DNA from: Cytophagales bacterium
GTDB lineage: Bacteria > Bacteroidota > Bacteroidia > Cytophagales > Microscillaceae
NCBI GenBank assembly: GCA_031425615.1
Contig: JANPJR010000030.1
Coordinates: 210,492 to 274,491, forward strand
Direction: 5' to 3'
DNA length: 64,000 nucleotides
Below, in pieces: positions 7,630 through 59,599 of this stretch (its first letter is position 1; the number at the start of each line of letters is the position of its first letter). The translations under genes and the position numbers were made by a program. The notes below the pieces were generated by a model. That model had not been told where the DNA came from. It saw nothing but the letters and a program-made list of their open reading frames with translations, and did not search any database.

Positions 7630-7676
7630 ATTATGGATTATAGATTATGGATTATGAATTGTAGATTAGGATTATT
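7630..7676. repeat. heptamer-periodic tandem repeat (GGATTAT type) abutting aguB start
   Basis: 'ttatggattatagattatggattatgaattgtagattaggattat'. Confidence 0.8.
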
Positions 7677-7843
7677 TTTTATTTATAAAATGCAAAATAA
7701 AACAATTTTATTAAAACCAACAACTAAAAAGAGTTCCCTAACCCCCAAAGAGAATAAATAGCTTTTAACTAAAAAAACCAATAGCTGAAAAACTCACAAC
7801 TTTAAAAAACTGGGAAAACTTACAACTGAAAAAACTTACAACT

Positions 7844-8914
7844 TTACAATTTTACCTCAATTTGTTCTTTTTCAAATAAGTCTTTTAAAATTTTTTGGAG
7901 ATTTTTTGCATCAATATTTTGATTTTGCATCAATACCCCAAAAGGCATCCTTGCCAACATAGAATTTTCAATCCCTAACATATCTGCAAGTTTATCACCC
8001 AAAAGATACCGCACAAGGCTTGGTACCATAATAGGAGGAATTTGTTTACTTTGTGAGGATAATGTTTCCAACAATATTTTTGTAAGTTTGAGTGTGTGCG
8101 GTGCTGGGTGAAATTGTCTTGTTGCTATGCTATTATCAAGCCAATAAGCAGATTTTGCAGTAAGCGGTAAAAGGTCATTTCCCAAACCCAAACAATGCCC
8201 AATATAAGCCCAAAGGTGCAAAAAATTTTCTGTTTGTGTATTATCAATGTCATAACCCAATGCGCGTAAACCACGCACACAAATCCACGAAAACGCAAGG
8301 TTTGTACCTGCCATATCTTCCTGATTGATAGGAATGCCCCAATCCATATTCCACTCAGGCAAATGTATAAGTCTTGCTCGTACAATAGCATGCATAAACC
8401 GCACTTTTAGAATACTCACAAGCCCTTTATTTTCAGGCAAAAACGCATCTTTTTGGGTAACATCTATTACAAATTGGGCAGTTTCAAGCAATCTTTTTTG
8501 GGTATCATTGCCCAATCTTTCCGAAAAATCTAAAACCCTTGCCCCATCTGCCCCTGCATAACAATAAGGCAAAGACAAATAACCCAGCATAGAAAGCAAT
8601 GCAGGCATATATTGGGCAAAAAATGCCTGTCCTTGTTGGATTTTCTTTTGGTCAAATTGTGGGGGAAATGTGATAAATTCACTAAAAAAATTTAAAAAAT
8701 AAGTACACATTTCCGCAGGAAAATCATTAAAAAAATCGTGTTTTTTAGTAATACCTAAAATACCTTCATTACAACGCAATTCATTGAGCAAAGCCCTAAA
8801 TTCCGCCATTTTATTTTTTTCAAAAACAACCTTTATAATTTCATCAACCAGAAAATCACCTTTTTGACGCATTTCAGGCAATATTTTGGGGTAATTGGGG
8901 AAAGTATTTTGCAT
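7844..8914 (-). CDS. DUF2236 / MpaB-RoxA-like oxygenase family protein (tentative)
   Basis: 356 aa with an 'RxxHxxVR'-type motif ('KVRFMHAIVRARL') reminiscent of DUF2236. Confidence 0.4.
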   Translation of the reverse strand: MQNTFPNYPKILPEMRQKGDFLVDEIIKVVFEKNKMAEFRALLNELRCNEGILGITKKHDFFNDFPAEMCTYFLNFFSEFITFPPQFDQKKIQQGQAFFAQYMPALLSMLGYLSLPYCYAGADGARVLDFSERLGNDTQKRLLETAQFVIDVTQKDAFLPENKGLVSILKVRFMHAIVRARLIHLPEWNMDWGIPINQEDMAGTNLAFSWICVRGLRALGYDIDNTQTENFLHLWAYIGHCLGLGNDLLPLTAKSAYWLDNSIATRQFHPAPHTLKLTKILLETLSSQSKQIPPIMVPSLVRYLLGDKLADMLGIENSMLARMPFGVLMQNQNIDAKNLQKILKDLFEKEQIEVKL

Positions 8915-8947
8915 GGATTGGTTATGATTTATATAGTTTAAAGTTTT

Positions 8948-9139
8948 TTACTGCGTGTTATTATCTTCATCAATAAGCCCCTTACTTATTGCATTTCGGA
9001 TAAATTGTTTTTCATAATGTCTATTTCGTCTATTTTTTTTTGCATCAACTCTTTTAGCATTACGTTTATCTATCACTAATTCATTCAACCTATTGAGGTC
9101 TTCTATTTTTGTGATGTCATTTGGAGAACTTCGTTTCAT
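8948..9139 (-). CDS. small basic hypothetical protein (63 aa)
   Basis: Trimmed from the 121-aa ORF to the internal Met ('MKRSSPNDITKIEDLNRLNELVIDKRNAKR...'). Lys/Arg-rich with no recognisable family. Confidence 0.3.
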   Translation of the reverse strand: MKRSSPNDITKIEDLNRLNELVIDKRNAKRVDAKKNRRNRHYEKQFIRNAISKGLIDEDNNTQ

Positions 9140-9298
9140 GGTTTTGTATATTTTTTGAATAACAAAGTGTATTAGAATAAGTTTTACAATATAAAAAAAA
9201 TAGTGTTTTATAGAAAAAAATCCAAAAAAACTGAAAAATTGCGGTTTTGGTGTTATTTTTTTACTTTTGCACAAACATAAATTTTTTAATCCCCAAAA

Positions 9299-9916
9299 AT
9301 GGAAACTACACACACAAATATTGCCTTACCTGTCATGGAAGCCTTTTACACATTACAAGGTGAAGGATTTTTTCAGGGAAGTGCTGCGTATTTTATACGT
9401 TTGGGCGGTTGTGATGTGGGTTGCGTGTGGTGTGATGTGAAGGAATCTTGGGACGTGAATGCACACCCAAAGATCTCAATAGAAAATATCGTAGCACAAG
9501 CCCAGATGCACAAAGCACGCCTTGCAGTTATTACAGGCGGTGAGCCACTAATGCACAATCTTGATACATTGTGTGAGGAATTGCATAAGGCAAATTTTCA
9601 TATCAATATAGAAACTTCTGGCACTTATCCGATGTCGGGCAATATTGATTGGATTTGTTTTTCCCCAAAAAAATTTAAAAAACCTTTACCCGAATTTTAC
9701 GACATTTCTCACGAACTAAAAGTAATCATTTACCACAAAAGCGATTTGGCTTGGGCAGAAACTTTTGCAAAAAAAATAAACCCAAACTGTAAATTGTATT
9801 TGCAACCTGAATGGGATAAATCCAAAGAAATGTTGCCTTTGATAGTTGATTATGTAAAAGAAAATCCACATTGGCGTATCAGTTTACAAACGCATAAATA
9901 TTTGGATATTCCGTAA
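9299..9916 (+). CDS. queE: 7-carboxy-7-deazaguanine synthase (radical SAM)
   Basis: 205 aa with QueE-type cluster motif 'CDVGCVWCD' and family-typical length. Confidence 0.85.
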   Translation: METTHTNIALPVMEAFYTLQGEGFFQGSAAYFIRLGGCDVGCVWCDVKESWDVNAHPKISIENIVAQAQMHKARLAVITGGEPLMHNLDTLCEELHKANFHINIETSGTYPMSGNIDWICFSPKKFKKPLPEFYDISHELKVIIYHKSDLAWAETFAKKINPNCKLYLQPEWDKSKEMLPLIVDYVKENPHWRISLQTHKYLDIP

Positions 9917-9970
9917 TTTAAGTTGTCAGTTTTTTAGTAATCAGTTTTTTCAGTTGTTAGTTTTATAAAA

Positions 9971-10474
9971 ATGAATAAAAATGAAGTTTTAATGTCTTTT
10001 TTGCCTCAATTATTAAAAGATAATTTTAATAAAGATGATTTTACATTTGAAATTGTGCCAAATAGTTCTCCTATTTGTATAGAAATCAAAGGCAAGTTTT
10101 TGGTGGGAATTTGTGAATTTTTATATGAAAATGCACAATGTTATTTTGATACATTGGCTTGTTTGACTGCATTGGACAATGGTAAAACCGCCAATATAAT
10201 GGAAGTATGGTATCATTTGTTTTCGCTTCCGCACCAACATAGTTTGGCGTTGCGTGTGATATTACCCAGAGAAAACCCTAAAATAGAAACTGTAAGCCAT
10301 ATTTGGCAAACTGCAAATTGGCACGAAAGAGAGGCTTTTGATTTGTTGGGTGTTATTTTTGAAAATCACCCTGATTTGAGAAGAATTTTGCTTACTGCTG
10401 ATTGGGAAGGCAATCCTTTGAGAAAAGATTATGAACAACAAGAAAAATATCATGGAATTACAGTGAAGTATTAG
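9971..10474 (+). CDS. NADH-quinone oxidoreductase subunit C (30-kDa subunit)-like protein, orphan
   Basis: 167 aa with the Complex1_30kDa core motif 'TANWHEREAFDLLGVIFENHPDLRRILL'. No other nuo genes are adjacent. Confidence 0.6.
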   Translation: MNKNEVLMSFLPQLLKDNFNKDDFTFEIVPNSSPICIEIKGKFLVGICEFLYENAQCYFDTLACLTALDNGKTANIMEVWYHLFSLPHQHSLALRVILPRENPKIETVSHIWQTANWHEREAFDLLGVIFENHPDLRRILLTADWEGNPLRKDYEQQEKYHGITVKY

Positions 10475-10527
10475 AAAAGTTCAAAAGGTTCAAAGTTTAA
10501 GGTTCAAAAGGTTCAAGGTTTAATTAA
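10475..10527. repeat. GTTCAAAGG-family short tandem repeat
   Basis: 'aaaagttcaaaaggttcaaagtttaaggttcaaaaggttcaaggtttaa' directly after the NuoC-like stop. Confidence 0.7.
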
Positions 10528-13340: not shown

Positions 13341-13368
13341 TTAAATTTACAAAAACTGACAACTTAAA

Positions 13369-14460
13369 CTACTTGATAAATTGTGCCAAAGGCCCGCTTG
13401 GGTGAAAAAATGGTCTTAAATCTTTGTATTGAATACGCAAATATCCACAACCACGATATTTGTGGGGGAGGCGTTCTGTAAGGTGAAATGTAATCTTGTC
13501 TTTGCTCATAGAGAAAGAAGTGCTTTCGTCCAATTTGAGTTTACATTTTTCTTTATCTCCCTCTGCGAGTTCATTTTTACAAAGTTCTTCAACTTTTTTT
13601 AAGATAAAATTATTCAGTTCAAAAAGTGCATTGGGTTTGAATAAATCTTGGATTTCATACACTTTACCACGTTTAAAATTGATGTTGATGCCATGTGAAT
13701 CATCAAAAAGTTGTGTTGCTTTGTCTTTGGACAAATGGTGATGTTTGTGTATGCTCATCATATCTTTGCCCATATAACTAAGTTCATAATTTACATCTTC
13801 TTTGAAGTTGTACGTAAGTGTATTTTTGTCTACATTTTGGAGTTGTGTACCAGAGCGGAAATAATCCTCCAATAGCCTATTGACACGTTTTCCCACATTG
13901 AAATCTGTGTAGCCAATTACTTGTGGATAATCTATTTCCACAAAACGCTCACCATCAACAGATTTTTTGATAATTTCTTTTTTTTGTACTTCTTTGATAT
14001 TTACTTCTTGAAAATTTTTGAGGGTAAATAAAAAAGTTTTGTTATTTTTACCATCTTCATCTTTTATTGTACCAATCAACACTTTTCCATCTTTGATTTT
14101 GGCGTTCATCATTCTTTGGTCTTGTGTATTGAGCATAATATCACCATTGTCTTGCAAAGTACCTTCAAATTTTACTTCTTTTTCAGGCGTAGCCAATAAC
14201 CAATATGTCCCTGACATATTTTTGCTATACTTTCTGAGGTTGATTTGTGCAGGTTGTCCGCCTATTTCACCCAAATATGAATTGTCAGAATTTGGCAAAG
14301 TTTCTACATTTTTTTGTTGTTCTGTATTATCGGTTTTTTTAGCAGTAGAATCTTTTTTGGTATTTTCTGAGGTTGTAGTCGTATTGCAAGCACTAAGGCA
14401 TATAAACGCACTACAAAATATTGTAGAAATTGTATTTTTTAAATGTTTGTTTAAAATCAT
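13369..14460 (-). CDS. lipoprotein, hypothetical
   Basis: 363 aa with signal peptide and lipobox ('CSAFICLSAC'). Thr/Asn-rich linker. Confidence 0.55.
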   Translation of the reverse strand: MILNKHLKNTISTIFCSAFICLSACNTTTTSENTKKDSTAKKTDNTEQQKNVETLPNSDNSYLGEIGGQPAQINLRKYSKNMSGTYWLLATPEKEVKFEGTLQDNGDIMLNTQDQRMMNAKIKDGKVLIGTIKDEDGKNNKTFLFTLKNFQEVNIKEVQKKEIIKKSVDGERFVEIDYPQVIGYTDFNVGKRVNRLLEDYFRSGTQLQNVDKNTLTYNFKEDVNYELSYMGKDMMSIHKHHHLSKDKATQLFDDSHGININFKRGKVYEIQDLFKPNALFELNNFILKKVEELCKNELAEGDKEKCKLKLDESTSFSMSKDKITFHLTERLPHKYRGCGYLRIQYKDLRPFFHPSGPLAQFIK

Positions 14461-15068
14461 AAAAATATAGTTAATGGATTATGGATTATAAATTAAAGCA
14501 AGTTATCAGTTTTTGTAAAATCTTATCAAATTATATTTTTAATGCAAAAAACAATAACAAAAAATAATAAAACAAGTAGCTATTTTATTTTGAAAAAAAT
14601 AACACACAACTTGGGTTATATTTTTGATTATATTTATTTAATGTATGAAATATATTTTACCTTTTTTAAACAATCATTGTTCCAAAAAAATATTTATACA
14701 AATACAAAGTATAAAATTCTTTCTTATTTAAAAATAAATATAGCTTTTTGTTACAAAAATATGAATAAAAAAGAGAAAATTTACAAATTTATAGAAATAA
14801 ACTTTTAGGCATTTTTGATTTTTAGACAAAAAAATATCGTATTCCACAGGAATTTTAGTATTTTTTGCAGATTTTCCCGCGGATTTTTTTTATTTTTTCA
14901 TAATTTTTTTTGTAAACGCTTAAAAAAAACTTTCATAATTTTTACACATATTTTACGTATTTTTTATATTTTGTTTTGTATTTTTGCCTAAATTTTTTTT
15001 TATTACAAAAACAAAAAAATATCTTTTCTAAAAATAATTCCCTAAAAAAAAACATAATACATAAAAAA

Positions 15069-16463
15069 ATGGCAAATCAATATGATGTGATTGTGGTAGG
15101 TTCAGGCCCTGGTGGATATGTGGCAGCAATTCGTGCCTCACAATTAGGCTTAAAAACCGCAGTAGTAGAAAAAGAAGAACTTGGCGGTATTTGCCTTAAT
15201 TGGGGCTGTATTCCTACAAAAGCACTTTTGAAAAGTGCGCAAGTTTTTGATTACATCAAACACGCAAAAGATTACGGTATCAGTGTAAATGCACCAACCG
15301 CAGACTTTGGGGCAATGGTAAAACGTAGCAGAGACGTAGCAGGTGGCATGAGCAAAGGCGTTAATTTTTTGATGAAAAAAAATAAAATTGATGTATTACT
15401 TGGTTTTGGCAAACTCGTGGCAGGCAAACAAGTAGAAGTTACTGATAAAGATGGCAAAAAAACTAATTACACCGCTCAACACATTATCCTCGCAACAGGT
15501 GGAAGAGCAAGAGAATTGCCTAATTTGCCTATTGACAACAAAAAAATTATTGGCTACCGCAAAGCGATGGTATTGGAAAACCAACCAAAATCTATGGTAA
15601 TAGTAGGCTCTGGTGCAATAGGTGTAGAATTTGCATATTTTTATAATAGCATTGGTACAAAAGTTACAATTGTGGAGTTTATGCCTACGATTGTGCCTGT
15701 GGAAGATGAAGATATTTCTAAAGAACTTGCCAAAATATACAAAAAAGCAGGCGTTGAAATCATGACCAATTCCGAAGTTCTAAGCGTAAATACCGCAGGA
15801 GAAGGTTGCAAAGTGAAAATCAAAACGCAAACAGGTGAAGTGTCATTGGATTGTGACATCGTATTGTCTGCGGTAGGCGTTGCAACTAATATTGAAGGCA
15901 TTGGTTTGGAGGAATTGGGCATCAAAACCGAAAAAGGTAGGGTAATTGTTGATGATTTTGGGGCAACAAATATCGCAGGTATTTATGCGATTGGCGACAT
16001 TACACGCGGACAAGCATTGGCACACGTAGCGAGCGCAGAAGGCATTATTTGTGTGGAAAAAATCGCTGGGCATCACCCTGAGCCTTTGGATTATAATAAT
16101 ATTCCTGGTTGTACATATTGTCAGCCCGAAATTGCTTCGGTTGGTCTTACAGAAAAAAAAGCAAGAGAAATGGGTTATGACATCAAAGTAGGCAAATTTC
16201 CGTTTTCTGCGTCAGGCAAAGCAAGTGCAGGAGGTGTGAAAGATGGTTTTGTAAAAGTGATTTTTGATGCACAATATGGTGAATGGCTGGGAGCGCATCT
16301 TATTGGTGCAAATGTTACAGAAATGATTGCGGAAGTGGTAGTAGCACGCAAATTGGAAACCACAGGACACGAAATCATCAAATCTGTACACCCTCACCCT
16401 ACTATGTCAGAAGCCATCATGGAAGCTACCGCAGCAGCATATGGCGAAGTAATACATTTGTAG
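15069..16463 (+). CDS. lpdA: dihydrolipoyl dehydrogenase
   Basis: Start at internal Met ('MANQYDVIVVGSGPGGY'). Redox disulfide 'GGICLNWGCIPTK'. The upstream in-frame 31 codons are an AT-rich leader. Confidence 0.9.
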   Translation: MANQYDVIVVGSGPGGYVAAIRASQLGLKTAVVEKEELGGICLNWGCIPTKALLKSAQVFDYIKHAKDYGISVNAPTADFGAMVKRSRDVAGGMSKGVNFLMKKNKIDVLLGFGKLVAGKQVEVTDKDGKKTNYTAQHIILATGGRARELPNLPIDNKKIIGYRKAMVLENQPKSMVIVGSGAIGVEFAYFYNSIGTKVTIVEFMPTIVPVEDEDISKELAKIYKKAGVEIMTNSEVLSVNTAGEGCKVKIKTQTGEVSLDCDIVLSAVGVATNIEGIGLEELGIKTEKGRVIVDDFGATNIAGIYAIGDITRGQALAHVASAEGIICVEKIAGHHPEPLDYNNIPGCTYCQPEIASVGLTEKKAREMGYDIKVGKFPFSASGKASAGGVKDGFVKVIFDAQYGEWLGAHLIGANVTEMIAEVVVARKLETTGHEIIKSVHPHPTMSEAIMEATAAAYGEVIHL

Positions 16464-16627
16464 TTTTATGGGTAAAAATAATTACCAAAAACAAAAAAAA
16501 TCCCCATAATGAAAAACCTAAAAAATCTTTCGTTATGGCAAAATATTTCTTGTAACAATTACGCAATATAGGCTATCAATTTGTAGTTTGATAGCTTGTT
16601 TTTATTTGTAGGTTTAATTAAAAAAAT

Positions 16628-17716
16628 ATGCATATTAATATGAATATCACAGAAAAAAACGTATTAGACGCACTTAGCACTGTTGAAGAACCTGATTTGA
16701 AAAAAGATTTGGTTACGCTCAACATGATACGCAATATAAAAATAACAGGAAATCGTATTGTTTTTACCATAATGCTCACTACGCCTGCGTGTCCGCTCAA
16801 AGAATTGATACGCAAAAATTGTGAAAACGCACTTTATACCCATATTTCAAAAGATATTGAAATAGAAATAGAAATGAATGCAGAAGTAACAAGTAGCACC
16901 ACAAACCGCACACTTTTACCCAATGTTCGCAATATCGTGGCAATAGCATCAGGCAAAGGAGGCGTAGGCAAAAGCACCATAACTGCCAATCTCGCACTCG
17001 CATTGGCACAAAGCGGTGCAAGCGTAGGTGTATTAGATGCTGACATTTCAGGCCCTTCAATACCTATTATGTTTGGCGTAGAACATGAAAAACCTGATAT
17101 GTACCGCAACGAACAAGGGAGAACTGTCATAATACCTATTCAGCGTTTTGGTATTAAATTTATTTCAATGGGTTTTCTTGCACCAGCAGAACAAGCAGTT
17201 CCTTGGCGAGGTCCTATGGCAAGCAAAGCGTTGATGCAGTTTTTGGGTGATACTGAATGGGGTGATTTGGATTATTTGTTGATTGACCTCCCGCCAGGCA
17301 CAAGCGATATTCACATTACGCTCACACAATCAGTAAGCCTTACAGGTGCAATTATTGTAACTACGCCCCAAAAAATTGCCTTAGCTGATGCCTTGAAAGC
17401 TATTGCCATGTTTCACCAACCTGCTACCAAAGCCCCTATTTTGGGACTTGTGGAAAATATGGCATATTTTACACCTGCAGAATTGCCCAACAATAAATAT
17501 TATATTTTTGGAGAAAATGGCGGTAAAGATTTTGCAGAACGCAATGTAATTACACTTTTGGGACAAATTCCAATCGTACAAAGCATCAGAGAAGGCGGTG
17601 ATAATGGTGTGCCTGCGGTGGAAAGTTCAGACGAAATCACACGCAAAGCCTTCAAAGAACTTGCCCAAAATCTTGCCCAACAAGTTGCTTTAAAAAATGC
17701 AGGTGTTTTGGTGTAA
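16628..17716 (+). CDS. apbC: Mrp/ApbC/NBP35 Fe-S cluster carrier ATPase
   Basis: 362 aa with N-terminal DUF59/MIP18-like domain, P-loop 'GKGGVGKST' and a ParA/MinD fold. Confidence 0.88.
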   Translation: MHINMNITEKNVLDALSTVEEPDLKKDLVTLNMIRNIKITGNRIVFTIMLTTPACPLKELIRKNCENALYTHISKDIEIEIEMNAEVTSSTTNRTLLPNVRNIVAIASGKGGVGKSTITANLALALAQSGASVGVLDADISGPSIPIMFGVEHEKPDMYRNEQGRTVIIPIQRFGIKFISMGFLAPAEQAVPWRGPMASKALMQFLGDTEWGDLDYLLIDLPPGTSDIHITLTQSVSLTGAIIVTTPQKIALADALKAIAMFHQPATKAPILGLVENMAYFTPAELPNNKYYIFGENGGKDFAERNVITLLGQIPIVQSIREGGDNGVPAVESSDEITRKAFKELAQNLAQQVALKNAGVLV

Positions 17717-17826
17717 GTGTTAAAGTTGTCAGGTGTTTTGGTTGTTAGGGTTTTTAGTTAATTAAAAACAAAAAACCGCTCTATTTTAAAAATAAAACGG
17801 TTTTTTTTTAAAAAAAAATAAAATCC

Positions 17827-18246
17827 TTAGAATTTATCTATGCTTGCGAAGAAGAAATTTCCTTCAATGATTGCATTTTCATCTGAATCAGAGCCATGAA
17901 TAGCATTTGCTTCAATAGATTTTGCAAATATTTTGCGAATAGTGCCTTCCGCAGCATTTGCAGGGTTAGTAGCACCAATCAACGTACGGAAATCTTCTAC
18001 TGCGTTGGTTTTTTCTAAAATCATTGGTACGATATGCCCAGATGACATATAAGCACACAAATCATTGTAAAAAGGGCGTTCTTTATGCACAGCATAAAAC
18101 TTGCCTGCGGTTTCTGCTGACATTTTTGTCATTTTCATCGCTACAATGCGAAAACCTGCTTCTTCAATCATTTTAATAATTGCCCCTGTATTATTTGCAG
18201 CTACTGCATCGGGCTTAATCATTGTGTAGGTGATATTACCTGCCAT
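17827..18246 (-). CDS. ndk: nucleoside diphosphate kinase
   Basis: 139 aa with '[10 protein letters not shown]' and the 'NAIHGSDS' active-site His. Confidence 0.9.
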
Positions 18247-18302
18247 TTTTTTGTTTTTTTTGTAAAAATTTATGGAAAACTATTTTTTTGCAAAGATAGG
18301 CA

Positions 18303-18350
18303 TAAATTAGGAATTAAAAATTAGGAATTAGGAATAAATTAAGAATTGAT
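18303..18350. repeat. heptamer-periodic repeat (AATTAGG type) upstream of ndk
   Basis: 'taaattaggaattaaaaattaggaattaggaataaattaagaattga'. Confidence 0.7.
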
Positions 18351-18461
18351 TGTTAAAAAATTAAAAAAACTTGTATTTAAAAATTTCAAAATATAAATTA
18401 AATGCTTTACATTTGTTTTTGAAAAACATGAATTCTAAAAAAAACAAAAAATTTATTTAAA

Positions 18462-18866
18462 ATGAAAAAAGACATAGAATTTCCACACGTTACAGGCGTG
18501 CATGTAGGTATTACACAAGACAGCGAGGGTTTTTGGGAAGTTTTTTTGATAAATGACAATGATTTTGTCCTACAAAATATATTGATTACTTCCACAGGGT
18601 ATTTGGCAGAAGACGACAATCCAAAAAAAATGCAACAACAAACCTCTACCTTGCGACACGCTGTTCCGATTTTGCAAGCAAATGAATACGCCAAAATTGA
18701 AATGATTGATGCAGAGGTTTTTCACCTTTGCAATGAATATTGGATAAGTTATTATGTAGATGGAAAAATTTATGATAAAAAATTTATTTTTATGCCTAAT
18801 ACAATTTCCAAAGAAAATTTTGTTTATATTGAAAATTTAGAGAAAGAAGGCGTATTACATAGCTAA
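18462..18866 (+). CDS. hypothetical protein
   Basis: 134-aa ORF with good coding look and a terminator downstream. No recognisable family. Confidence 0.45.
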   Translation: MKKDIEFPHVTGVHVGITQDSEGFWEVFLINDNDFVLQNILITSTGYLAEDDNPKKMQQQTSTLRHAVPILQANEYAKIEMIDAEVFHLCNEYWISYYVDGKIYDKKFIFMPNTISKENFVYIENLEKEGVLHS

Positions 18867-18893
18867 AAACCTTCTTGAATAAATTATTTTTAA

Positions 18894-18936
18894 CAAAAAA
18901 ATCTTGCATTATTCAAAATGCAAGATTTTTTTTTAT
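18894..18936. terminator. bidirectional rho-independent terminator
   Basis: Hairpin 'atcttgcatt-attcaaa-aatgcaagat' flanked by an A-run and T9. Confidence 0.8.
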
Positions 18937-18954
18937 ATTTAGAAAACAGAAAAT

Positions 18955-21900
18955 CTATACTTTTTGGAGGCAAGCAAGCCATTGTTTTGTATTTTTGTTT
19001 TCATCACGCAAAGGGTAGAAAAAAGTACGGAATTTGAGTTTTTCACCTTCTTTTCCTACATATTTTACCACTTTTGCGGTAGAGATTCCTTGTTGTATTT
19101 GTGCTTGCCATTCTTGGTATTCATCACTTTCTTTTTCAGAAATGTCTAACAAATCTGTAAAAGGACACGCTAATATTTCACCTTCTTTGTAGCCCAACGC
19201 CCAAATAGCTTGTTGGTTGATGCGTGAAACTGTGCCTTCCATATCCACTTCTATAATAATAAGGCTACTTTCAAGTGCTTTTACCCTGTCCTCTGCCATA
19301 GACACAATCGTTGCGGAAGGCGTATTAGGATAAGGTGGTGGCATGAGATGATTGAACAGATGTACGATTTCTGTAACTTGGTTATCTTTGTTGATAATAG
19401 GGATAAAACTTGTATGATAAAATGATTTTTCGCCTTTTGTAGAGATAAACGCAAGTTCTTCCACATTTTGGGCAATACCTACTTTTACGCCTTCCCACAT
19501 TACTTTAAAATCTTTGCTTTCAGCAAAGTTTTTATCTAAAAAATCCGTATAAGTTTGCCCTATAAGTTCAGTACCTTGCAGGCGTGTAAGTTGCAAAAAC
19601 TTTTGGTTTGCACTTAGGATTTCGCCTTCGGGAGATATTTCCAACACCGCAAAAATGGCATTGATTTTATCAAAAAGTTCTACGAGTTCTCTTTCTCTTT
19701 GGTTAAGCATATTGGCAGTTTGTTCCAAAAATTCTTTTTTTCGCACCAAATCTTCTTGTATAATTTCCAAATCTGCAAGTTTTTCATTGAAAGAATTTTG
19801 TTTTTCCTGCCAATGTGTAGCAGTTTTTTCTTCAATGTCAGCGATTTGATTTTCTAAGGATTGTATGCTGATGGTGTCTTTTTGGTGTTTTTCTTTGAGT
19901 TGTGCAATTTCAAGCAATAATTCTGCAATTTCAGGTATTTCTATGAAATTATCAACAGTATTAGGCACAATATTTTGAGAAATATTATCAGTTTGTTGTT
20001 TTTGTTGGTTTAGCGTTTCGTTGAGGGTTAATATTTGGTTTTCAAGGGCATTTATTTTTGCTTGGTAGTTTTGATTTTCAGTTTGTAAGTTGGTTATTTC
20101 TTGTGTTATTTGAGTATTTTCAGCTTTTTTGGCTTGTATTTTTAAGAAATTTTCTTCCAACTCGTTATTTTTTTGTTTCAATTCTTCTACAAGTTCTTTA
20201 AGGTCTTGTAATTCTTGGAGGTTATCTTCTTTTGGTGGTTGATTTTGTTGTAATAGATACTGCGAAACGAGGAGTTCGTCCTCTTTTTTGCGTAGTTTTT
20301 GGATTGTATTTTCAAACTGTGTAATGAGGTCTTTATATTTTTGTTCAAAACTTTGTAATTCTTGGCTTAGGAGTCCATTTTTTTCCAACGTTTCGTCCAA
20401 ATCAAGCCTTAAATAATGCGTTTCTTTTTCAAAAATTTCATTTTTAGTAGCAATTTGTTGTGAAATTTGGACAATAAGTTGTTCTTTTTCTTGTATATCG
20501 CTAAGGATATTTTGCAATTTTTCTGCCTGCCAAGTATTTATTTTTTCCAATTCGTTATATTTTTCGGTATTTTCTTGTGATTCCTTAAGCATATTCTGCA
20601 ATTTTTCTGCCTGCCAAGTATTTATTTTTTCCAATTCGTCATAATTAGACACAATTTTTTCCAATTCATGTTGTAGTGCAATTATTTTTTGTTGTGCTTC
20701 GTGCAATTCTTGTTCCCAATTTTCAGGTATTGCATACGCTTTTTCTTGCCAAAAATTAAGATTTGCCTGCAAATCATTGATGTATTGTTGCATTGCCTCT
20801 TTTTCTTGTGCTTTTTCTTCTTCTTGTATATTTTCTTGTGGCGTACTTTCTGTGGTTGTATTCGCAATTTTTTCAGAAAGTTCTGTAACCATGTTTTGCC
20901 AAAATGTAATATTTAATTGCAATTCATGTATATAGTGTTTTGTGGCATCTTTTTCGTCAGACGTTTGGTTTTCAGAGAGTTGTATTTTTGAAATTGCATT
21001 TTTGAGGTTGCTTATTTCCTCGTCTTGTTTTTCCAAAATATCATTTTTCCATTTGAGGGCTTCTTTTGCGATAGAAACATCATTATTTTTCTTACTAATA
21101 AGGTCTTCAAAACTGTTATTTTTTTGAATTAACTCATTTTTTTCCATTTCAAGGCTCAAATTTTGAGCTTCCAACGCTTTTAGTTTCTCCAAATATATTT
21201 TTTCCAAATCCACATTATTTTCTGCTTGTGATTGTGAAGTAATTATGTCTACGATATTTGGGGTATTTTTTGGTTTTTGAATATTTATTGTTGGTCTATT
21301 TTCTTCATCATCAATATAATAGGGTTCCAATTCTTCTGCTTGTTGTTGCAGATTTTTGGCTTGAATTTCTGCTTGTAGTTTTTGATTTTCTTCTCTAAGG
21401 ACTTTTATTTCTTTTTGTTGGTCTTTATAAATTTCAGATTGTTCAAAATTATCCATCAAAATCTCTTTTGTTTTTTGAGCATTCAACAAACTTTGCAAAG
21501 ACGCAGAAATATTGTGAGAAGCTCTATCCAAAAAAATCAAAAAACGAGGCATCAATTTATCCAATGTGCTCAATTCTATGACACCACTTACAGTTTTGTT
21601 GTATGCCAAAGGCAATACTACCATATAATTGGCTTTTATTTTGCCCAAAGACGAATTTACTTCGGTTTCTATTTCGTCCAAACACAACATTTCTTGCGAT
21701 TTGACTGCCTGCCCCACAAGCCCTTCCCCTATTTGGAACTGTGTGCGTTCCATTGTTTCCAACGTACAAGCATAACCTGCGGTTGCTTGCACCATATTTT
21801 TATCGTGATTGACCACAAAAAAAGCACCATGTATTGCACCTAATAAGCGTGCAAGGTATTGGATAAGGTTTTCAGAAAATTTTTTTGGTGTATTTTCAAA

Positions 21901-25860: not shown

Positions 25861-25969
25861 AAAAAAGCAAAATTAAAATTAAAATTTTTTGGTAAAAAAA
25901 ATAATTATCAGTAATAAATTGCCAGTTGTCAGTTTTTTACTGAATTAACTGACAACTTAACTAACTACA

Positions 25970-27061: not shown

Positions 27062-27065
27062 TTTA

Positions 27066-27097
27066 ATTAGGAATTGAGAATTAGGAATTAGGAATTA
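27066..27097. repeat. heptamer-periodic tandem repeat (AATTAGG type) abutting hppD start
   Basis: 'attaggaattgagaattaggaattaggaatta'. Confidence 0.8.
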
Positions 27098-27137
27098 AAA
27101 AATTGGTAACGTTTGTTTTTTGCAAATATACAAAAAA

Positions 27138-27345: not shown

Positions 27346-27559
27346 AGGGTTGAAGCAACATTATGACATTTCGGTTGTAAATATCTAAAATGTGTTTTAA
27401 AACTTGTAGAAATAACATTTTTTTTTTTACTTTATTTAAAACCAAAATTCCTAATCCATAATTCACAACAAAACTGATAACCTAAAAACTTATAACTGAC
27501 AACTTGGATTAATCCATAATTCTTTCCTTATATTTGCATTATTTTTTAAACAAAAATCT

Positions 27560-30730: not shown

Positions 30731-30749
30731 TTAATTCCTAATTCCTCTT

Positions 30750-44333: not shown

Positions 44334-45069
44334 TTTTTTAAATATAAACGCTAAAAACAAGCAACTAATGGTGTTGTGATGTGTAAAAAATTATAAAAGC
44401 AAAAATACATTTTTTTTCAATATTAATATCCTTTTTTATTTTTGAAAAAAAGATTTAAAATCCACAAAAAATCAAAAATTAAGCAAATAAATTTGGTACG
44501 ATTTTTTCGTGTGATTTATCATATCTTCTGATGTTAAGGTTTTTTTTATACGAAAAAATTTAGAAAAAAAGTATTTTTTTGTCATTTTTCGAGTTATTTT
44601 ATTTGATAAATTTATTTTTTTAAACAAAAATAACGAATTTTAATCATAATTAAAATGCAATAAATTTTATTTTTTAAAGTATTCAAAAAAACTAAAACTA
44701 TCATAAAAAATTGTGTTTTTAGAAAAAAGCAAGCGTATTTATAATTCACTAAGTTGTGTATTATATTTTTTTCAACAAATTTATAAAAACTAAGCACTTA
44801 AAAACTAAGAATTTGAAAAATAATAACTAACAGCTTACAAGTAATTACGGATTATTTTCTAAAAAATAAGGTTTAAACTGTTATAAAAGCATTTTTTTTT
44901 AAATATTTTTTGTACTTTTGTACAACAAAAACAACGTTTAATATAATATTTTACGATTAAAATAAACCGTTAAAACATAAAATTTTAAAAAAATTAGAAA
45001 AAAAACGACAAGATAAGGGCTTTTTTTAATTTTTTTGTGAGAAATAGATTTTTAAATAAATCATAAAAT

Positions 45070-47520: not shown

Positions 47521-47575
47521 CATAAGTTATCAGTTTTTCAGTTGTGAGTCTTTTAGTTTCGTAAAACCATAAAAC

Positions 47576-47643: not shown

Positions 47644-49017
47644 TTAGTTTTTCACTCCCAACTTTCCAAGTGCTTTATCCAAATCTACTTTGGCAATAAT
47701 AGCATTGTACATAGCAGTAAAATACGCATTTTCTGCTTGTTTGAAAGTGTTTTCTGCATCAATAATATCAATATTTGTACCTGTGCCACCTCTAAATTTT
47801 GCTTGTGCAATGCGTGAAACTTCTTGTGCAAGTTCCATATTTTTCTTTTGAATATCCAAATCTTTTAGGCTATTATCAATATTATATTTGGCTTGTTCTA
47901 CTTGAAAATCTACGCTTTTCTTGAATATTTTTACATCTTCTTCCACCTTTGCCAAATCAATGCGTGATTTTTGGAGTGTTGCACTTCTTCTGCCACCATC
48001 ATACAAAGGAATATTAAGCGAAAGACCATAAAACGCATACGCAAAGTATTTTTGGCTAAATTTTGGTAAATCTGAAAACTGGTTTGAACCTGTATTTGCC
48101 CCATACGAAAAATTACCCCTAAGACTTGGATAATACAACGATTTGTTGTAGCGAATCGTCATTAATTGTGCTTCTTTGTTTGCTTGCAACAAGGCATATT
48201 CAGCACGTTGGGTAGCATCAACTTCTATATTTTGTATATTTTCTATACCCAAATTTACAGTACGAATATCCCCTTGCAAAATCAAAGAATCCATCACAGG
48301 CATTCCCATCTGGTATTTTAACAACTTTTTTGAAAAATCTTGCAACGCCAATATTTGTAATTTTTGGGTTTTCAAATTATTCAAAGTTACTTCCAAACGC
48401 AACAAATCAATCCTTTCTGCAAGTCCATTTTTTTGTAATTCTTGGGTATATTTAAACAATGTATCCACACGATAAACATTCGCTTCTATCAGTTTAAGCC
48501 TTTCATCATTTATCAAAACCGCATAAAAACCTTTGGTTACTTTTTCTGCAATATCTATTTTATTTTGGGCAATCACTTTTACAGAAAGGTCTTTGTACAC
48601 ACGTGCAGCTTTTAAGCCAATCAAATACGAGAAATCAAAAATTAATTGTTCCACATTGATAGACGCATTTGCGGTATATTTTGCCCCAAAAGCAAGTGCC
48701 AAAGGATTAGGTGAATTATTAAGTGGTGGTGTATTTCCTGGAAGAAGCGTTTTTTGAATTACGATATTATCCGTATAACCCGCCCTTGCATTAATTTGGG
48801 GCAACCCTGTTGCCAATGTTTGTTTGATGGTTTCTTCTGCGGAAAGTATATCCAAATTGTTTTTTTTCAATACTTCTGAATGTTGTATCGCATATTTGAT
48901 GCAATTCTCCAAATCATAACTTTCTATGCCTTGTGTATTGTCAATTTGTGCAAAAACAGAATTTTTTTGGACAAACAAAGCCAAAAAAATCATTAAAATA
49001 AAAAAAGAATGTTTCAT
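47644..49017 (-). CDS. TolC-family outer membrane efflux protein
   Basis: 457 aa with signal peptide and two OEP repeats. Confidence 0.85.
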   Translation of the reverse strand: MKHSFFILMIFLALFVQKNSVFAQIDNTQGIESYDLENCIKYAIQHSEVLKKNNLDILSAEETIKQTLATGLPQINARAGYTDNIVIQKTLLPGNTPPLNNSPNPLALAFGAKYTANASINVEQLIFDFSYLIGLKAARVYKDLSVKVIAQNKIDIAEKVTKGFYAVLINDERLKLIEANVYRVDTLFKYTQELQKNGLAERIDLLRLEVTLNNLKTQKLQILALQDFSKKLLKYQMGMPVMDSLILQGDIRTVNLGIENIQNIEVDATQRAEYALLQANKEAQLMTIRYNKSLYYPSLRGNFSYGANTGSNQFSDLPKFSQKYFAYAFYGLSLNIPLYDGGRRSATLQKSRIDLAKVEEDVKIFKKSVDFQVEQAKYNIDNSLKDLDIQKKNMELAQEVSRIAQAKFRGGTGTNIDIIDAENTFKQAENAYFTAMYNAIIAKVDLDKALGKLGVKN

Positions 49018-49089: not shown

Positions 49090-49719
49090 TTAGGGGATTA
49101 TTTGAGGGTTAATGGCTTGTTTTATAAGTTCATTTCTATATATGTTATATTTTTCAAGTCCTTTTTCTGTGATAAGCCCTCGCAAAAAATGCGCAGTCAT
49201 CGTACTTATAACTTCTTTCATATCAAACATTTGTAAAGGCTCCAATAGTACTGCTACACCTTCAAAAGACGCAATACGCAAAGTCGCAATAATTTCCATA
49301 TTAAATTCTGTATGATACAAGCCCTCTGATACGCCTCTGTTTAAGTTTTGTAAAATCGCATTTTTTACAAATTGTTGGTGGTGTGCATGATGCAATTCCC
49401 ACACCTCAGGGTGATATTTGCGAAGGTCATGAATAAAACATGGATTTATTTGGCGAATTTCTTGTATTTTTAATTGCGTAATTTTTAATACTTCTTCAAC
49501 TGCATCTTTTGAAATTTGGTGTATATTTTCTATCATTTTTTTATCAAAATCAATCATATAATTGTGCAGTTTTTGTACCATTGCATTTTTATCTTCAAAA
49601 TATTGGTAAATGGTTTTTTTAGAAATGCCTATGCCCCTTGCAATATCGTCCATGCTCACGCTCCTCGTGCCATATTGCATAAATAAACTTTTGACGTGCA
49701 TCAAAATTTTTTCTTCCAT
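49090..49719 (-). CDS. TetR/AcrR-family transcriptional regulator
   Basis: 209 aa with N-terminal TetR HTH 'SMDDIARGIGISKKTIYQYF'. Lies directly upstream of tolC on the same strand. Confidence 0.85.
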   Translation of the reverse strand: MEEKILMHVKSLFMQYGTRSVSMDDIARGIGISKKTIYQYFEDKNAMVQKLHNYMIDFDKKMIENIHQISKDAVEEVLKITQLKIQEIRQINPCFIHDLRKYHPEVWELHHAHHQQFVKNAILQNLNRGVSEGLYHTEFNMEIIATLRIASFEGVAVLLEPLQMFDMKEVISTMTAHFLRGLITEKGLEKYNIYRNELIKQAINPQIIP

Positions 49720-49763: not shown

Positions 49764-49799
49764 CTTAGGAAACTATAAAAAAGTTTAAAGTTTCCTAAG
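49764..49799. promoter_or_regulatory. candidate TetR operator (imperfect copy) in tetR-tolC promoter
   Basis: 'cttaggaaactataaaaaagtttaaagtttcctaag' has 11-bp perfect arms and lies 45-80 bp upstream of the tetR start. Confidence 0.5.
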
Positions 49800-50068
49800 T
49801 TTTTTAGATTTTTTTAGTTGTAATGGATAAATTTATGATTTTTTTTATAATTTATATGATTTTTTCCATATTATGACAAAAATTTGTTATATTTTCAAAA
49901 AATCCATACAAATTGATTTTTAATGTTTTACAAAAAACTATGCAAAAATTCTTATATTTGCGAGGTTTTTTTTATTTTCTTAATTTTTTTAACCTTCCTA
50001 AAACTACCTTTTTATAATTTTAAAGCTGTTAATTCCCCTTTGAGGGTTAGGAAGCTAATTCTACTTTT

Positions 50069-51220: not shown

Positions 51221-51272
51221 CGTTTTTTGAATTTTAAACTTTTGAACCTTAAACCCTTTGAACTTTAAACCT
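51221..51272. repeat. GTTCAAAGG-family repeat (reverse orientation) between lgt and rlmD
   Basis: 'ttttgaattttaaacttttgaaccttaaaccctttgaactttaaacc'. Confidence 0.7.
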
Positions 51273-51277
51273 TTTTC

Positions 51278-56033: not shown

Positions 56034-56199
56034 ATAGGGTAATTAGGAATAGGGGAGTAAAAAAGCCACCCAGCCCACAAAGGGGAGTTTTTGGGTGGAA
56101 ATGGAAAATTATTTTATAAGGTTTATTTTTTCTCAAATATCCATAATTATTTACAGATATTCAAGTTTTTTTTGTATTTGCTCTTTGGGGCTTGGGCTT

Positions 56200-57433: not shown

Positions 57434-57748
57434 ATTTTTATGTGTTTAGTGTGTTTTAAAGATTTTTTGGTTAGTTTTCCTTTAAATTATATTGCAAAGT
57501 TCAACTTTATGTTTTGGAAATAAAAAGACAAGCAGACTTATAAATTTCTTTCCAATTTCCAAGAAATTTCCTAATTTTTTTGACACAAAAAAGCCTCCTA
57601 ACCCACAAAGGAATAAACTGCCTTTGACTGTAAAAACGAAAATACTTTTTGGTACTTAATCCATTTTATACTGATAAATGTTAATTTAGCATCAAAATAA
57701 CCGTTATTTTAGGATTTTAAAGGCATTTTAAAATTATTTTTAAAAAAA

Positions 57749-57783
57749 CTTAGGAAACTATAAACTTTTTTATAGTTTCCTAA
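57749..57783. promoter_or_regulatory. candidate TetR operator (perfect 16-bp inverted repeat) upstream of MFP-RND operon
   Basis: 'cttaggaaactataaa ctt tttatagtttcctaag' has the same arms as the tetR-proximal copy and lies ~110 bp upstream of the MFP start. Confidence 0.5.
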
Positions 57784-57853
57784 GTTTTCTTGTTATATAT
57801 TTGCAACTCAAAAAATTAGGAAAAAACCGTTTTATTTTTATTTTATTATTTTT

Positions 57854-57888
57854 CATTCCTAATTTCTAATTCTTAATCCCTAATCCCA
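57854..57888. repeat. heptamer-periodic repeat (TTCCTAA type) abutting MFP start
   Basis: 'cattcctaatttctaattcttaatccctaatccca'. Confidence 0.8.
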
Positions 57889-57894
57889 TAAAAT

Positions 57895-58962
57895 ATGCTT
57901 AAAGTCTGGAAAATCATTAGAATACCATTATTTTTAATTGCTTTTGTGGCTGTAATTGCTTTTACGCTCACAAACAATAAAGAAAAAGCCAAAGAAACCG
58001 CAAAAATTGCGGAAAAAACGGTAGATACTTATCCTGTTTCTGTTGCAAGTGCTGGTTTTGAAAATTTTGAGGGAAATTTTAACCTTACAGGTAATCTTGA
58101 GCCTTTTCGTGAGTTGAATTTTGCCTCAGAAGTTGCAGGCAGGGTAACTGCTGTTTATTTTGAAAAAGGTTCTTTTGTAGGCGAAGGAAGCGTATTGGTA
58201 AGGCTTGATGACGAATCTATCCAAAGAGAATTAAAAATCGCCAATATCACATTAGAAAAAAGACAAAAAGATTTTCAACGTGTAGAAAACCTCGCAAAAT
58301 CAAGCGTTGGAACAATGGCACAATATGATGACGCAAAATATGCCCTACAAACCGCAGAACAACAAGTAGAAACACTTAAAGAACGCCTTGCTAAAACTGT
58401 CATAAAAGCCCCTATCACTGGCATAATCTCACGCAAAGCAATAGAAAAAGGCTCTTACCTCGCCCCAAATGTGCCTATCGCAGATATTACTGATGTATCT
58501 CGTATGAAAATGATTATAAAGGTATCTGAAAGTGAGCTTATGAAAATACAACAAGGACAATCTGTAAAAATAAAAATGGACGCATATCCCGATTTGGATT
58601 TCACTGGTGTTGTTACCAATCTCGCTGTAAAAGCTGACAACTCAAAACGTTATGAAGTAGAACTACAAATATCAGGTAATGGCAATGCTTCGCTCAGAGG
58701 TGGGCTTTTTGGCATCGTGTATTTCCAATTTGCAAAAAGTGGTAGTGCTCTAATGATTCCACGCAGGGCTATCGTAGGCAGTATCCAAGATGCACAAGTA
58801 TTTGTGGTGGAAAATGGTATCGCCTTTGTACGTAAAGTAAAAGTAGGTACTATCAAAAATGATAAAATTGAAGTAATTGAAGGTTTAAAAGAAAATGAAA
58901 AAGTGGTAACCACAGGACAAATAAACTTGCAGGATAAATCTAAGATTACAGAAATAAAATAA
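57895..58962 (+). CDS. RND efflux periplasmic adaptor (MFP/HlyD family)
   Basis: 355 aa with N-terminal TM, biotinyl-lipoyl-like and beta-barrel domains ('VLVRLDDESIQREL'). Confidence 0.85.
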   Translation: MLKVWKIIRIPLFLIAFVAVIAFTLTNNKEKAKETAKIAEKTVDTYPVSVASAGFENFEGNFNLTGNLEPFRELNFASEVAGRVTAVYFEKGSFVGEGSVLVRLDDESIQRELKIANITLEKRQKDFQRVENLAKSSVGTMAQYDDAKYALQTAEQQVETLKERLAKTVIKAPITGIISRKAIEKGSYLAPNVPIADITDVSRMKMIIKVSESELMKIQQGQSVKIKMDAYPDLDFTGVVTNLAVKADNSKRYEVELQISGNGNASLRGGLFGIVYFQFAKSGSALMIPRRAIVGSIQDAQVFVVENGIAFVRKVKVGTIKNDKIEVIEGLKENEKVVTTGQINLQDKSKITEIK

Positions 58963-59152
58963 TGATTAATGGTTAATTATTAATGGTTAATTATTAATGA
59001 TTAATGGTTAATTATTAATGATTAAAACAAAAAATAAAATTAATTAACCATTAATGGTCAATCATTCACAATTAATTAATACATTTTCAATCAATTAATC
59101 TCAATTAATCTCAATCAATACACAACCAACTAATCATTAATCATTAAAAAAT
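58963..59152. repeat. TAAT-palindrome-rich left flank of four-helix-bundle gene
   Basis: Tandem 7-bp-periodic 'tgattaa tggttaa ttattaa' units with palindromes 'ccattaatgg', 'attaat', 'ttaattaa'. Confidence 0.8.
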
Positions 59153-59509
59153 ATGGCAAATATTATTAATGAAAAAAGTTTTGCATTTGCAGTAAGATAT
59201 GTAAAAATGGCACAACATCTACAAGACACCAAGAAAGAATTTATCATGAGCAAACAATTACTGCGTTGTGGTACATCAGTAGGAGCAAATGTAAGAGAAG
59301 CCCAATATGGAGAAAGTAAAAAAGATTTTATTCATAAATTAGCCATTGCCCAAAAAGAATGTAATGAAAGTTTATATTGGGTAGAATTATTATATGCTAC
59401 TTCTTACTTGACCGAAAAAGAATATCAGTCTATACAAATGGATTTAGAAGAACTTTTAAAAATCCTTACAAGCATTATTGTTACTACAAAAAAAACAATT
59501 AATGATTAA
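59153..59509 (+). CDS. four-helix-bundle protein (TIGR02436 / '23S rRNA intervening-sequence protein' family)
   Basis: 118 aa with 'SFAFAVRYVKMAQ...LLRCGTSVGANVREAQYGESKKDFIHKLAIAQKECNESLYWVELL', a characteristic family signature. Inserted between the MFP and RND genes. Confidence 0.8.
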   Translation: MANIINEKSFAFAVRYVKMAQHLQDTKKEFIMSKQLLRCGTSVGANVREAQYGESKKDFIHKLAIAQKECNESLYWVELLYATSYLTEKEYQSIQMDLEELLKILTSIIVTTKKTIND

Positions 59510-59599
59510 TGGTTAATGATTAAATAAAAAAAGCACAAAATAGAATTAATAAAACACTCACAATTAATAATTAATAATTAATAATTAATCATTAAAAAT
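59510..59599. repeat. TAAT-palindrome-rich right flank of four-helix-bundle gene
   Basis: 'ttaatggttaatgattaa ... aattaataattaataattaataattaatcattaaaaat' immediately before the RND start. Confidence 0.8.

Follow-up and report, generated by a model that had tools for sequence, protein, structure and literature searches.

Strand-polarised heptamer arrays at gene boundaries of a Cytophagales genome as candidate untranslated-region elements

Tandem arrays of degenerate 7-nt units stand between genes in a 64,000-nt stretch of the genome of a Cytophagales bacterium (contig JANPJR010000030.1, positions 210,492 to 274,491; hereafter the window, with coordinates counted from its first nucleotide), many of them directly before start codons and some directly at stop codons. 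On the mRNA strand the arrays before starts are poor in G or free of it, those at stops are free of C, and the same tendency recurs in related and in distant genomes. Our preferred explanation is that they are polarised heptamer simple-sequence arrays which act, or are tolerated, at the RNA level as elements of untranslated regions (UTRs), a reading to which we assign a probability of roughly one half. The window (about 32% GC) belongs to an AT-rich member of the Bacteroidota, whose closest protein relatives among the matches listed are metagenome-assembled genomes of Microscillaceae and Cytophagia, and it encodes a CHU_C type IX secretion substrate.

Genes were taken as long non-overlapping open reading frames (ORFs), the starts of aguB, MFP and hppD being backed by full-length homolog matches, and the chance baseline came from dinucleotide-preserving shuffles of the intergenic regions, with array score cut-offs of at least 8 and at least 12. 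At the lower cut-off 12 period-7 arrays were observed against 2.3 expected, and at the higher one five against 0.13. Periods 14 and 21 appeared as multiples accompanying period 7, periods 15-16 mark a second family, and periods 4, 5, 8, 9 and 11 gave no arrays in the same shuffle test of the window. Every array scoring at least 12 is intergenic, despite 85% of the window being coding. Tandem direct copies of 7 nt exceed chance by Tandem Repeats Finder (TRF) as well as by shuffling, which places them among heptanucleotide intergenic direct repeats. The preference for period 7 extends to 2.16 Mb of fetched loci, with 319 period-7 arrays (179 outside the family used for the scan) and 14, 25, 40 and 7 arrays at periods 6, 8, 9 and 10; about 100 heptamer unit families occur across these loci.

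The units are degenerate (75-90% matches by TRF in arrays of more than three copies). In several arrays TRF periods of 14, 21, 28 and 35 outscore 7, which points to duplication of multi-unit blocks. Phasing with the DNA helix, two turns of which span 21 bp, was rejected as a cause since all four of these super-periods occur. An assembly artefact was ruled out by an independent Logan assembly of the same sample (SRR20217183), identical at 100% over 14827-20542 and 58968-62509, five arrays included; exact-protein look-ups found the genome in that sample only. The independent short-read contig L001 begins at window position 58968, inside the array at 58960-59025; heptamer arrays thus break short-read assemblies. 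Rfam at the gathering threshold and a tRNA scan of the window gave no matches, and no rRNA.

The arrays are concentrated at gene starts. Of the 13, seven are no more than 15 nt from a start codon (expectation 0.87), a number that none of 20,000 random placements reached (p < 5e-5), in keeping with the proposal of a first-pass annotation that they are enriched near starts and are not uniform low-complexity AT-rich DNA. Identity at lag 7 is 0.406 in the 50 nt before starts, compared with 0.31-0.35 at lags 5-6; it is elevated after stops too, and rises more weakly in mid-intergenic DNA. The pre-start arrays, all G-free on the mRNA strand, end 4-13 nt upstream of the ATG.

All of the arrays listed by the first-pass annotation were recovered where it had placed them, and its gene names are about right (CN_hydrolase, HPPD-type dioxygenase, NDK, MVP shoulder, HlyD-type MFP and AcrB). 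Its GGATTAT repeats, so read on the plus strand, are ATAATCC on the coding strand of two minus-strand genes. About 6.7 units (7630-7676) end 10 nt before the ATG of a CN-hydrolase (aguB-like) gene (6747-7619), are G-free on the mRNA strand and belong to a leader predicted to fold at 0 kcal/mol; two to three units (14468-14489) stand 13 nt before the ATG of gene 13369-14460, which has no Pfam match. The AATTAGG/TAATTCC arrays were recovered too. About 4.7 units of TAATTCC (27065-27097, minus strand) lie in the 5' leader of an hppD-like gene (25970-27061), and about five units of ATTCCTA (57854-57888, plus strand) in that of the MFP gene (57895-58962). A TAATTCC-type array (18303-18350, minus strand), confirmed by the independent assembly, is found 59-100 nt upstream of the ndk ATG, and two TAATTCC units (30731-30746, plus strand), preceded by a CCCCCTTTGGGTTTAGGGGG hairpin motif, end 4 nt before the ATG of an MVP-like gene. 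This gene (30750-33251) is bacterial and encodes a major-vault-protein shoulder with Vault_3 and Band_7 domains. The TAATGAT/AATTAAT repeats at 58960-59152 and 59498-59599 are likewise present, but two of their arrays (58960-59025 and 59498-59523) abut stop codons, not the start codons to which they had been assigned. The arrays had also been credited to many genes at three to seven units each; only about eight of 44 genes have one, and the MVP array has just two units.

The location of arrays relative to promoters is informative. The Bacteroidetes -7 box, TAnnTTTG, occurs 31-121 nt before many ATGs. For hppD (box TATATTTG, 69 nt upstream of the ATG) and MFP (99 nt upstream), the array lies between this box and the ATG and ends 7-9 nt before the ATG, that of hppD occupying about -45 to -9. 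A change in copy number at these sites would therefore alter neither promoter spacing nor reading frame. A Shine-Dalgarno (SD)-like 4-mer is present in just one of 43 leaders, and the predicted folding energies of single-array leaders (0 to -2.3 kcal/mol) do not improve on those of shuffled sequences. In Bacteroidia (Flavobacterium johnsoniae), published work shows that initiation depends on weakly structured RNA, on adenines upstream and on the scarcity of AUG close to the start (PMC6847099). A role of the arrays as leaders in an SD-blind organism is plausible.

The first-pass annotation had offered two readings, the first being phase variation through copy-number changes that alter promoter-to-start spacing or leader structure; in such a model frequent slippage would switch the downstream gene on or off. 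The repeats are indeed tandem and adjoin gene starts, their copy number and arrangement vary among related species, and indels between Cyanothece strains in such regions come in 7-nt steps (PMC4679880). However, the repeat units are degenerate, the genes concerned serve housekeeping or efflux and do not encode surface antigens, spacing and frame are unaffected in the two leaders just described, two assemblies of the single available sample are identical, and strand polarity plays no part in a switching model. Comparison with the phase-variable simple sequence repeats of pathogens leads the same way. Like the window arrays, the AGAT repeats in the 5' UTR of Moraxella uspA2 and the promoter-spacer repeats of Haemophilus are tandem repeats between promoter and start, and their copy number can tune expression, but they are perfect, of one unit type, often long, variable within populations and placed before surface or virulence genes. 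Window-type arrays are degenerate, polarised and found before housekeeping genes in free-living lineages across phyla. With 75-90% matches in those of more than three units they are no near-perfect homogeneous tracts, and neither the hppD nor the MFP array lies in a promoter spacer or an ORF; the ndk array, which abuts the -7 box from upstream, may be another matter. Contingency loci are thus a very improbable explanation. The alternative offered alongside it, an SD-independent leader feature, fits better (a single SD-like 4-mer, low G, weak folding), except for its description as lineage-specific.

Strand polarity is the most distinctive property of the arrays. In the window, pre-start arrays of ATAATCC, TAATTCC, TAATCAT and AATTAAT are all G-free on the mRNA strand, and the two arrays that start at stop codons (TAATGAT/TAATGGT) are C-free. 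Among the window and its close relatives (loci L082, L084 and L085), C exceeds G in 12 of 13 pre-start arrays and G exceeds C in nine of nine post-stop arrays; for other Bacteroidota loci, fetched around hppD, the corresponding figures are 9 of 12 and 10 of 15. A metagenome scan for (TAATTCC)x3 provided 120 loci of 33-67% GC. Judged against ORFs of at least 100 codons with a filter on GC3 (GC at third codon positions), 43 of 86 independent (GGAATTA)n arrays were concordant with the polarity and 11 discordant, the G orientation following a stop in 29 cases against five and the C orientation preceding a start in 14 against six. Many of them begin at the stop codon itself. The period-15/16 family, GTTGTCAGTT/TCAGTTTTT, has the same polarity (23 concordant, seven discordant). 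Restated without reference to gene orientation, the G-containing strand is the one that leaves the coding region 5' to 3', at either end of the gene. Arrays of the same kind, even of the same heptamer, occur across Bacteroidota and in contigs of 58-67% GC, and are not lineage-specific as had been suggested.

AT-rich GGAATTA arrays beginning at stops or just after them were seen in such high-GC contigs among L088-L207 (for example L113, L148, L157 and L164), often next to other heptamer arrays (GAGTTTT, AAATCCG).

Leaders of this genome are G-poor in general, at 5.7% G in the 40 nt before starts and, with arrays masked, 6.7% against 13.8% C. Background G and C are balanced over the 40 nt that follow stops, so that the C-free state of post-stop arrays is not explained by composition skew. 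Avoidance of start codons was rejected as the cause of polarity, because GGAATTA/TAATTCC, although devoid of start codons on both strands, shows strong polarity. The termination factor Rho might set the polarity if G-free, unstructured, YC-containing arrays load it and are tolerated only under initiating ribosomes, and if after stops only the C-free orientation, unable to load Rho, survives. Sites of rut type are U-rich, YC-rich, G-poor and unstructured with C above G (PMC9499579), properties that pre-start arrays share, and the lack of C after stops despite the balanced background would also be accounted for. Nevertheless, at 20-45 nt the arrays are shorter than typical rut sites (about 60-80 nt), AATTAAT-type arrays are almost without C, and Cyanobacteria, which carry heptamer arrays next to starts, lack Rho (PMC12642595). 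We regard an origin of the polarity in Rho as improbable.

Both orientations come together in the operon MFP-PF05635-AcrB. A C-free post-stop array (58960-59025, plus strand), made of three copies of the 21-mer TAATGAT-TAATGGT-TAATTAT, opens with the TAA stop of MFP and forms the 5' arm of a predicted intercistronic stem (z = -5.8). Positions 59038-59147 (plus strand) hold the complementary arm (TTAATTAACCATTAATGGTCAATCATT) and, after it, some 90 nt of G-free leader in which TCAATTAATC and TAATCAT units occur; this stretch ends 5 nt before the ATG of the PF05635 gene (59153-59509, plus strand). A second C-free array, TAATGAT/TAATGGT (59498-59523, plus strand), contains the stop codon of this gene, and about 5.4 units of G-free AATTAAT (59562-59599, plus strand) end 4 nt before the AcrB-type ATG; the predicted partner of the latter array is 59498-59523 and, when the fold is global, 58960-59025. 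Post-stop and pre-start arrays in this operon are reverse complements that would close each intercistronic region in a long stem, with z = -3.3 for the second one in the window and z = -6.1 for the MFP-AcrB region of L084. Folded as a whole, the cassette has an outer stem between its first G arm and its last C arm (z = -3.7). A general hairpin rule was rejected, as many arrays have no partner or one of another family.

The gene between these arms encodes a four-helix-bundle '23S rRNA intervening-sequence protein' (Pfam PF05635, E = 1.3e-26; PDB 2RLD, five chains, E = 2e-34) with homologs 60-68% identical across Bacteroidota and Candidatus Halobeggiatoa. It is present in the window and in L085 (1391-1747) and absent at the same MFP-AcrB junction in L084. 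Twelve PF05635 loci were compared (the window, Halobeggiatoa, Flavobacterium ovatum with two genes, Chitinophaga costaii, Arcicella and seven IMG/VR loci, six of them with arrays). In this subfamily, period-7 arrays lie within about 125 nt of 11 of 12 independent genes, mostly as inverted arms with the gene in the loop, and 22 of 29 arrays at these loci are within 130 nt of the gene. The viral contigs of IMG/VR, an unbiased sample obtained by an alignment-based scan, contributed seven independent genes; six are near arrays and five have inverted arms, each built from another heptamer. In the four named genomes the gene stands between co-oriented operon genes with heptamer arrays flanking it, and the usual layout has the G arm upstream and the C arm downstream. 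C. costaii, with (AATTATG)11 before the gene and (CATAATT)11 after it, has a predicted fold of -186 kcal/mol compared with -100 kcal/mol for shuffles (z = -11.7). No paper linking PF05635 genes to heptamer repeats was found in a literature search.

These loci suggest a tentative alternative, in which a selfish hairpin element carrying PF05635 has the arrays as its arms or preferred landing sites or has left them as remnants; it would be an mRNA-borne analogue of the 23S rRNA intervening sequence (IVS). Solo arrays would then be empty or decayed copies without host function, and their position and polarity would reflect tolerance of insertion only. The close association of gene and arrays, the sporadic presence of the gene at one operon junction, its invariable setting between co-oriented operon genes, the similarity of homologs across phyla and the overlap of arrays with the 3' ends of upstream genes (for example in L211) all suit such an element. 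So does a precedent, the selfish IVS of Coxiella, in which inverted repeats form a stem cut by RNase III and an S23p ORF occupies the loop (PMC4990558). Like the Coxiella and Leptospira IVS, the window cassette places a PF05635 (S23p) ORF within the loop that a stem of terminal inverted repeats would close, interrupts a region that is, or in the window would be, transcribed, and is sporadic among relatives. The IVS stem is cut by RNase III, whereas that of the window is known from predicted folding. Furthermore, the arms of the cassette are heptamer arrays, and it lies between the protein-coding genes MFP and AcrB, not in helix 25 or 45 of 23S rRNA, Rfam having found no rRNA in the window.

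A profile search of the 1.3 Mb of hppD-selected loci, which hold about 57 arrays, found no PF05635 of this subfamily, so most arrays are independent of the gene, and PF05635 was rejected as a requirement for them; the same search of all fetched sequence found the subfamily nowhere beyond the loci named. Nearly every locus has its own arm heptamer, in contrast to transposable elements, whose ends are conserved. No transposase, reverse transcriptase or target-site duplication was seen, there is no PF05635 remnant between the arms in L084, and neither a conserved element core nor a transposase beside the arrays was found, as would mark a transposable element, a MITE (miniature inverted-repeat transposable element) or a repetitive extragenic palindrome (REP). 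In enterobacteria, REP and BIME (bacterial interspersed mosaic element) sequences are abundant extragenic elements after stops and between operon genes, whose RNA hairpins influence how stable an mRNA is and how it is processed; REPs share some 35 nt of conserved sequence and have a RAYT transposase of their own. Unlike these, the window arrays have no conserved sequence, only a 7-nt register and a polarity. That inverted arrays and PF05635 genes make up selfish intercistronic hairpin cassettes across phyla, with solo arrays as empty sites, remnants or landing pads, is possible, but we hold it with little confidence. Should it be so, the 7-nt register might reflect propagation or recognition of the cassette or of the pentameric PF05635 protein.

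Comparison between species shows that arrays are replaced while their position is kept and the promoter conserved. Window and L084 share a conserved MFP promoter with a palindromic operator and the -7 box. The array in the leader belongs to the TAATTCC type in the window and L085, in differing arrangements, and to the CTTTAAA/CCTTAAA type in L084. Complementary arrays are present at the MFP-AcrB junction in all three species, with different heptamers (TAATGAT versus AATTATG). The aguB array is absent from an 89%-identical ortholog in L082, which has a CCCTTTGGGGTTAGGGG motif before the ATG instead.

Under the preferred reading, the arrays would expand and contract through slipped-strand duplication, both of 7-nt units and of blocks of 14, 21, 28 and 35 nt. 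The G-free orientation would fill the last 5-50 nt of 5' leaders, with the C-free complement starting at or just after stop codons. A lone G-free array would provide a leader without structure, SD-like sequence or AUG, GUG or UUG, and usually with UAA in three frames; many heptamers have stop codons in three frames, and several, such as CATTCAC and ATTCAAC, do not. Ribosomes could load on the open RNA of this leader and start at the first AUG beyond it. Where both orientations occur in one transcript, as in MFP-PF05635-AcrB, a long A/U-rich stem would close the intercistronic region and bracket PF05635, the same arrangement as that of the stems which RNase III cleaves in 23S rRNA intervening sequences. 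The arrays themselves, their enrichment, placement (also with respect to promoters), polarity, predicted structure or lack of it, turnover and association with PF05635 are shown by the data, while transcription, an effect on translation, cleavage of paired arms by RNase III and an origin by slippage are inferred.

Several points weigh against this reading. Assignment to leaders rests on a match to the promoter consensus. The 5'-UTR placement given by the first-pass annotation is borne out for hppD and MFP and fails for ndk, where the array, 59-100 nt upstream, adjoins the -7 box TATCTTTG on its upstream side and is hence outside the leader. Arrays before gene 27560 are also upstream of a -7 box, so not every array lies in a transcript. 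Loss of the aguB array from so similar an ortholog indicates that an individual array is dispensable. GGAATTA/TAATTCC has a stop codon on both strands and no start codons, and its polarity persists. The C-free state of post-stop arrays has no demonstrated rationale, and the preference for period 7 itself lacks an explanation. Array position and polarity could merely mark where neutral arrays are tolerated.

The fixed register might instead point to a trans-acting protein that binds single-stranded nucleic acid with a footprint of about 7 nt and regulates translation or mRNA fate, the arrays being its iterated sites. Candidates would be the PF05635 pentamer or, following MacGregor, an OB fold of the cold-shock-domain or S1 type. 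In its favour, units of widely differing sequence keep a strict 7-nt register, the polarity speaks for recognition of a single strand, the AT-rich GGAATTA turns up again in contigs of 58-67% GC, arrays surround PF05635 genes, and a binding partner is postulated both by MacGregor 2015 and in a preprint on Nostoc. With about 100 heptamer families, several of them within the window, a sequence-specific binder is nevertheless unlikely; no candidate protein co-varies with the arrays in the data analysed, and arrays occur with no PF05635 gene nearby. Overall a dedicated binding protein seems unlikely. Heptad operators of the ω type were rejected as an analogue at the DNA level, since the arrays are downstream of promoters and strand-polarised.

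Arrays of this sort have been described before. MacGregor 2015 (PMC4679880) reported TAACTGA direct repeats near start codons in Beggiatoaceae, Cyanobacteria and five Bacteroidetes including Flexibacter litoralis, with 132 of 170 sets in the BOGUAY genome forward of a start. Other heptamers occurred alongside, with 7-nt indels between strains, and translational control through S1, Csp or CsrA-like proteins was proposed. Heptanucleotides are the commonest long simple repeats in Mrazek's survey, as cited in PMC4679880. As with the TAACTGA repeats, the window arrays consist of 7-nt units in tandem between genes, for the most part share one orientation and stop a few nucleotides short of starts. 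Both also precede unrelated housekeeping genes, are mixed with other heptamers, are occasionally reversed after a stop and occur in a Cytophagales genome (F. litoralis in the published set). The window arrays are, on these shared features, members of an already described class. Their placement in particular (intergenic, single orientation, ending a few nucleotides before the ATG) is that of MacGregor's repeats. However, their units are ATAATCC, TAATTCC and TAATGAT/AATTAAT, and a TAACTGA-like motif is confined to the period-15/16 family, so they belong to the broader class and not to the TAACTGA set. The G-free/C-free rule, intercistronic stem pairing and the link with PF05635 are not described in MacGregor 2015 (PMC4679880).

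In Nostoc PCC 7120 (preprint, 10.1101/2022.06.06.494920), contiguous heptamers TTTTGAA/TTCAAAA precede many genes, near starts and promoters, and their deletion changes reporter output. The unit resembles the AAAGTTC/TTTGAAC family of the window. Unlike the window, Nostoc belongs to another phylum and uses SD-like sequences; the effects are partly at promoter level, and no polarity rule was reported. A literature search for the heptamer strings found nothing relevant. The short tandemly repeated repetitive (STRR) heptanucleotides of cyanobacteria have long been known.

The first-pass annotation had treated the repeats as one set of heptamers. This holds for the heptamer arrays described above, with which two other families are mixed, one of period 15-16 (GTTGTCAGTT type) and one of AAAGTTC/AAGGTTT type. 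The former is represented by a post-stop array (9917-9968, plus strand) that fills the gap between genes 9299-9916 and 9971-10474. Further GTTGTCAGTT/TCAGTTTTT sites are 17717-17760, 47521-47560, 25925-25969 and, on the minus strand, 7780-7843, 13350-13368 and 35100-35134. These period-15/16 repeats begin directly after stops, and the reverse form, AACTGA(C/T)AAC, which is related to the published TAACTGA, precedes starts. The AAAGTTC/AAGGTTT family includes a post-stop array of AAGGTTC/AAAGTTC units (10475-10523, plus strand) directly after the Complex1_30kDa stop and, of the same family, a 216-bp tandem array (27134-27349; 5.5 copies of a 40-mer, 92% matches) with AAAGTTC/AAGGTTT sub-units in the divergent intergenic region of hppD and a glycosyltransferase gene. 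The unit is reversed in a pre-start array of TTTGAAC/TTTAAAC units (51225-51275, plus strand; TRF period 15-16), which has C above G on the mRNA strand and fills the 57-nt gap from lgt to a tRNA methyltransferase gene. It is found in L013, L073, L082 and L084 as well.

A second short repeat, CCYTTTGNGGGYTRGG, with the potential to form a small hairpin, has eight matches where 0.42 would be expected. Its sites include 7737-7752, 56069-56084 and 57597-57612 on the minus strand, 30712-30733, 50036-50051 and 56181-56196 on the plus strand, and 9975-9999 in L082. It often lies 5-25 nt before a start codon, and in L082 stands in place of the aguB heptamer array. The palindrome CTTAGGAAACT-N14-AGTTTCCTAAG occurs at 49764-49799 and 57749-57784, and at about 3520-3555 in L084. 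It precedes the TetR-OEP operon (49090-49719 and 47644-49017) and the MFP-AcrB operon, is conserved in L084, and is probably the TetR operator of a split efflux system. Two very AT-rich regions, 36497-37620 (1124 bp) and 44361-45069 (709 bp), are without an ORF of at least 80 aa. An 84-bp tandem duplication (20486-20643; 1.9 copies, 90% matches) is contained in a 1045-aa ORF (18955-22092).

Cyanobacterial heptamer repeats near starts have attracted notice for decades, those of Beggiatoaceae and a few Bacteroidetes since 2015. The window and its relatives add testable handles, namely a polarity rule that crosses phyla, array positions kept while the sequence is swapped, and PF05635 genes within inverted arrays. 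Neighbouring genes can acquire stop codons or short C-terminal extensions from the arrays. Should the arrays prove to be stems of selfish cassettes, they would offer a setting in which to study the uncharacterised and very abundant PF05635 family, and a single mechanism would join heptamer repeats with PF05635 proteins. Should they serve as leaders, they would have a bearing on the choice of start sites by the SD-blind ribosomes of Bacteroidia.

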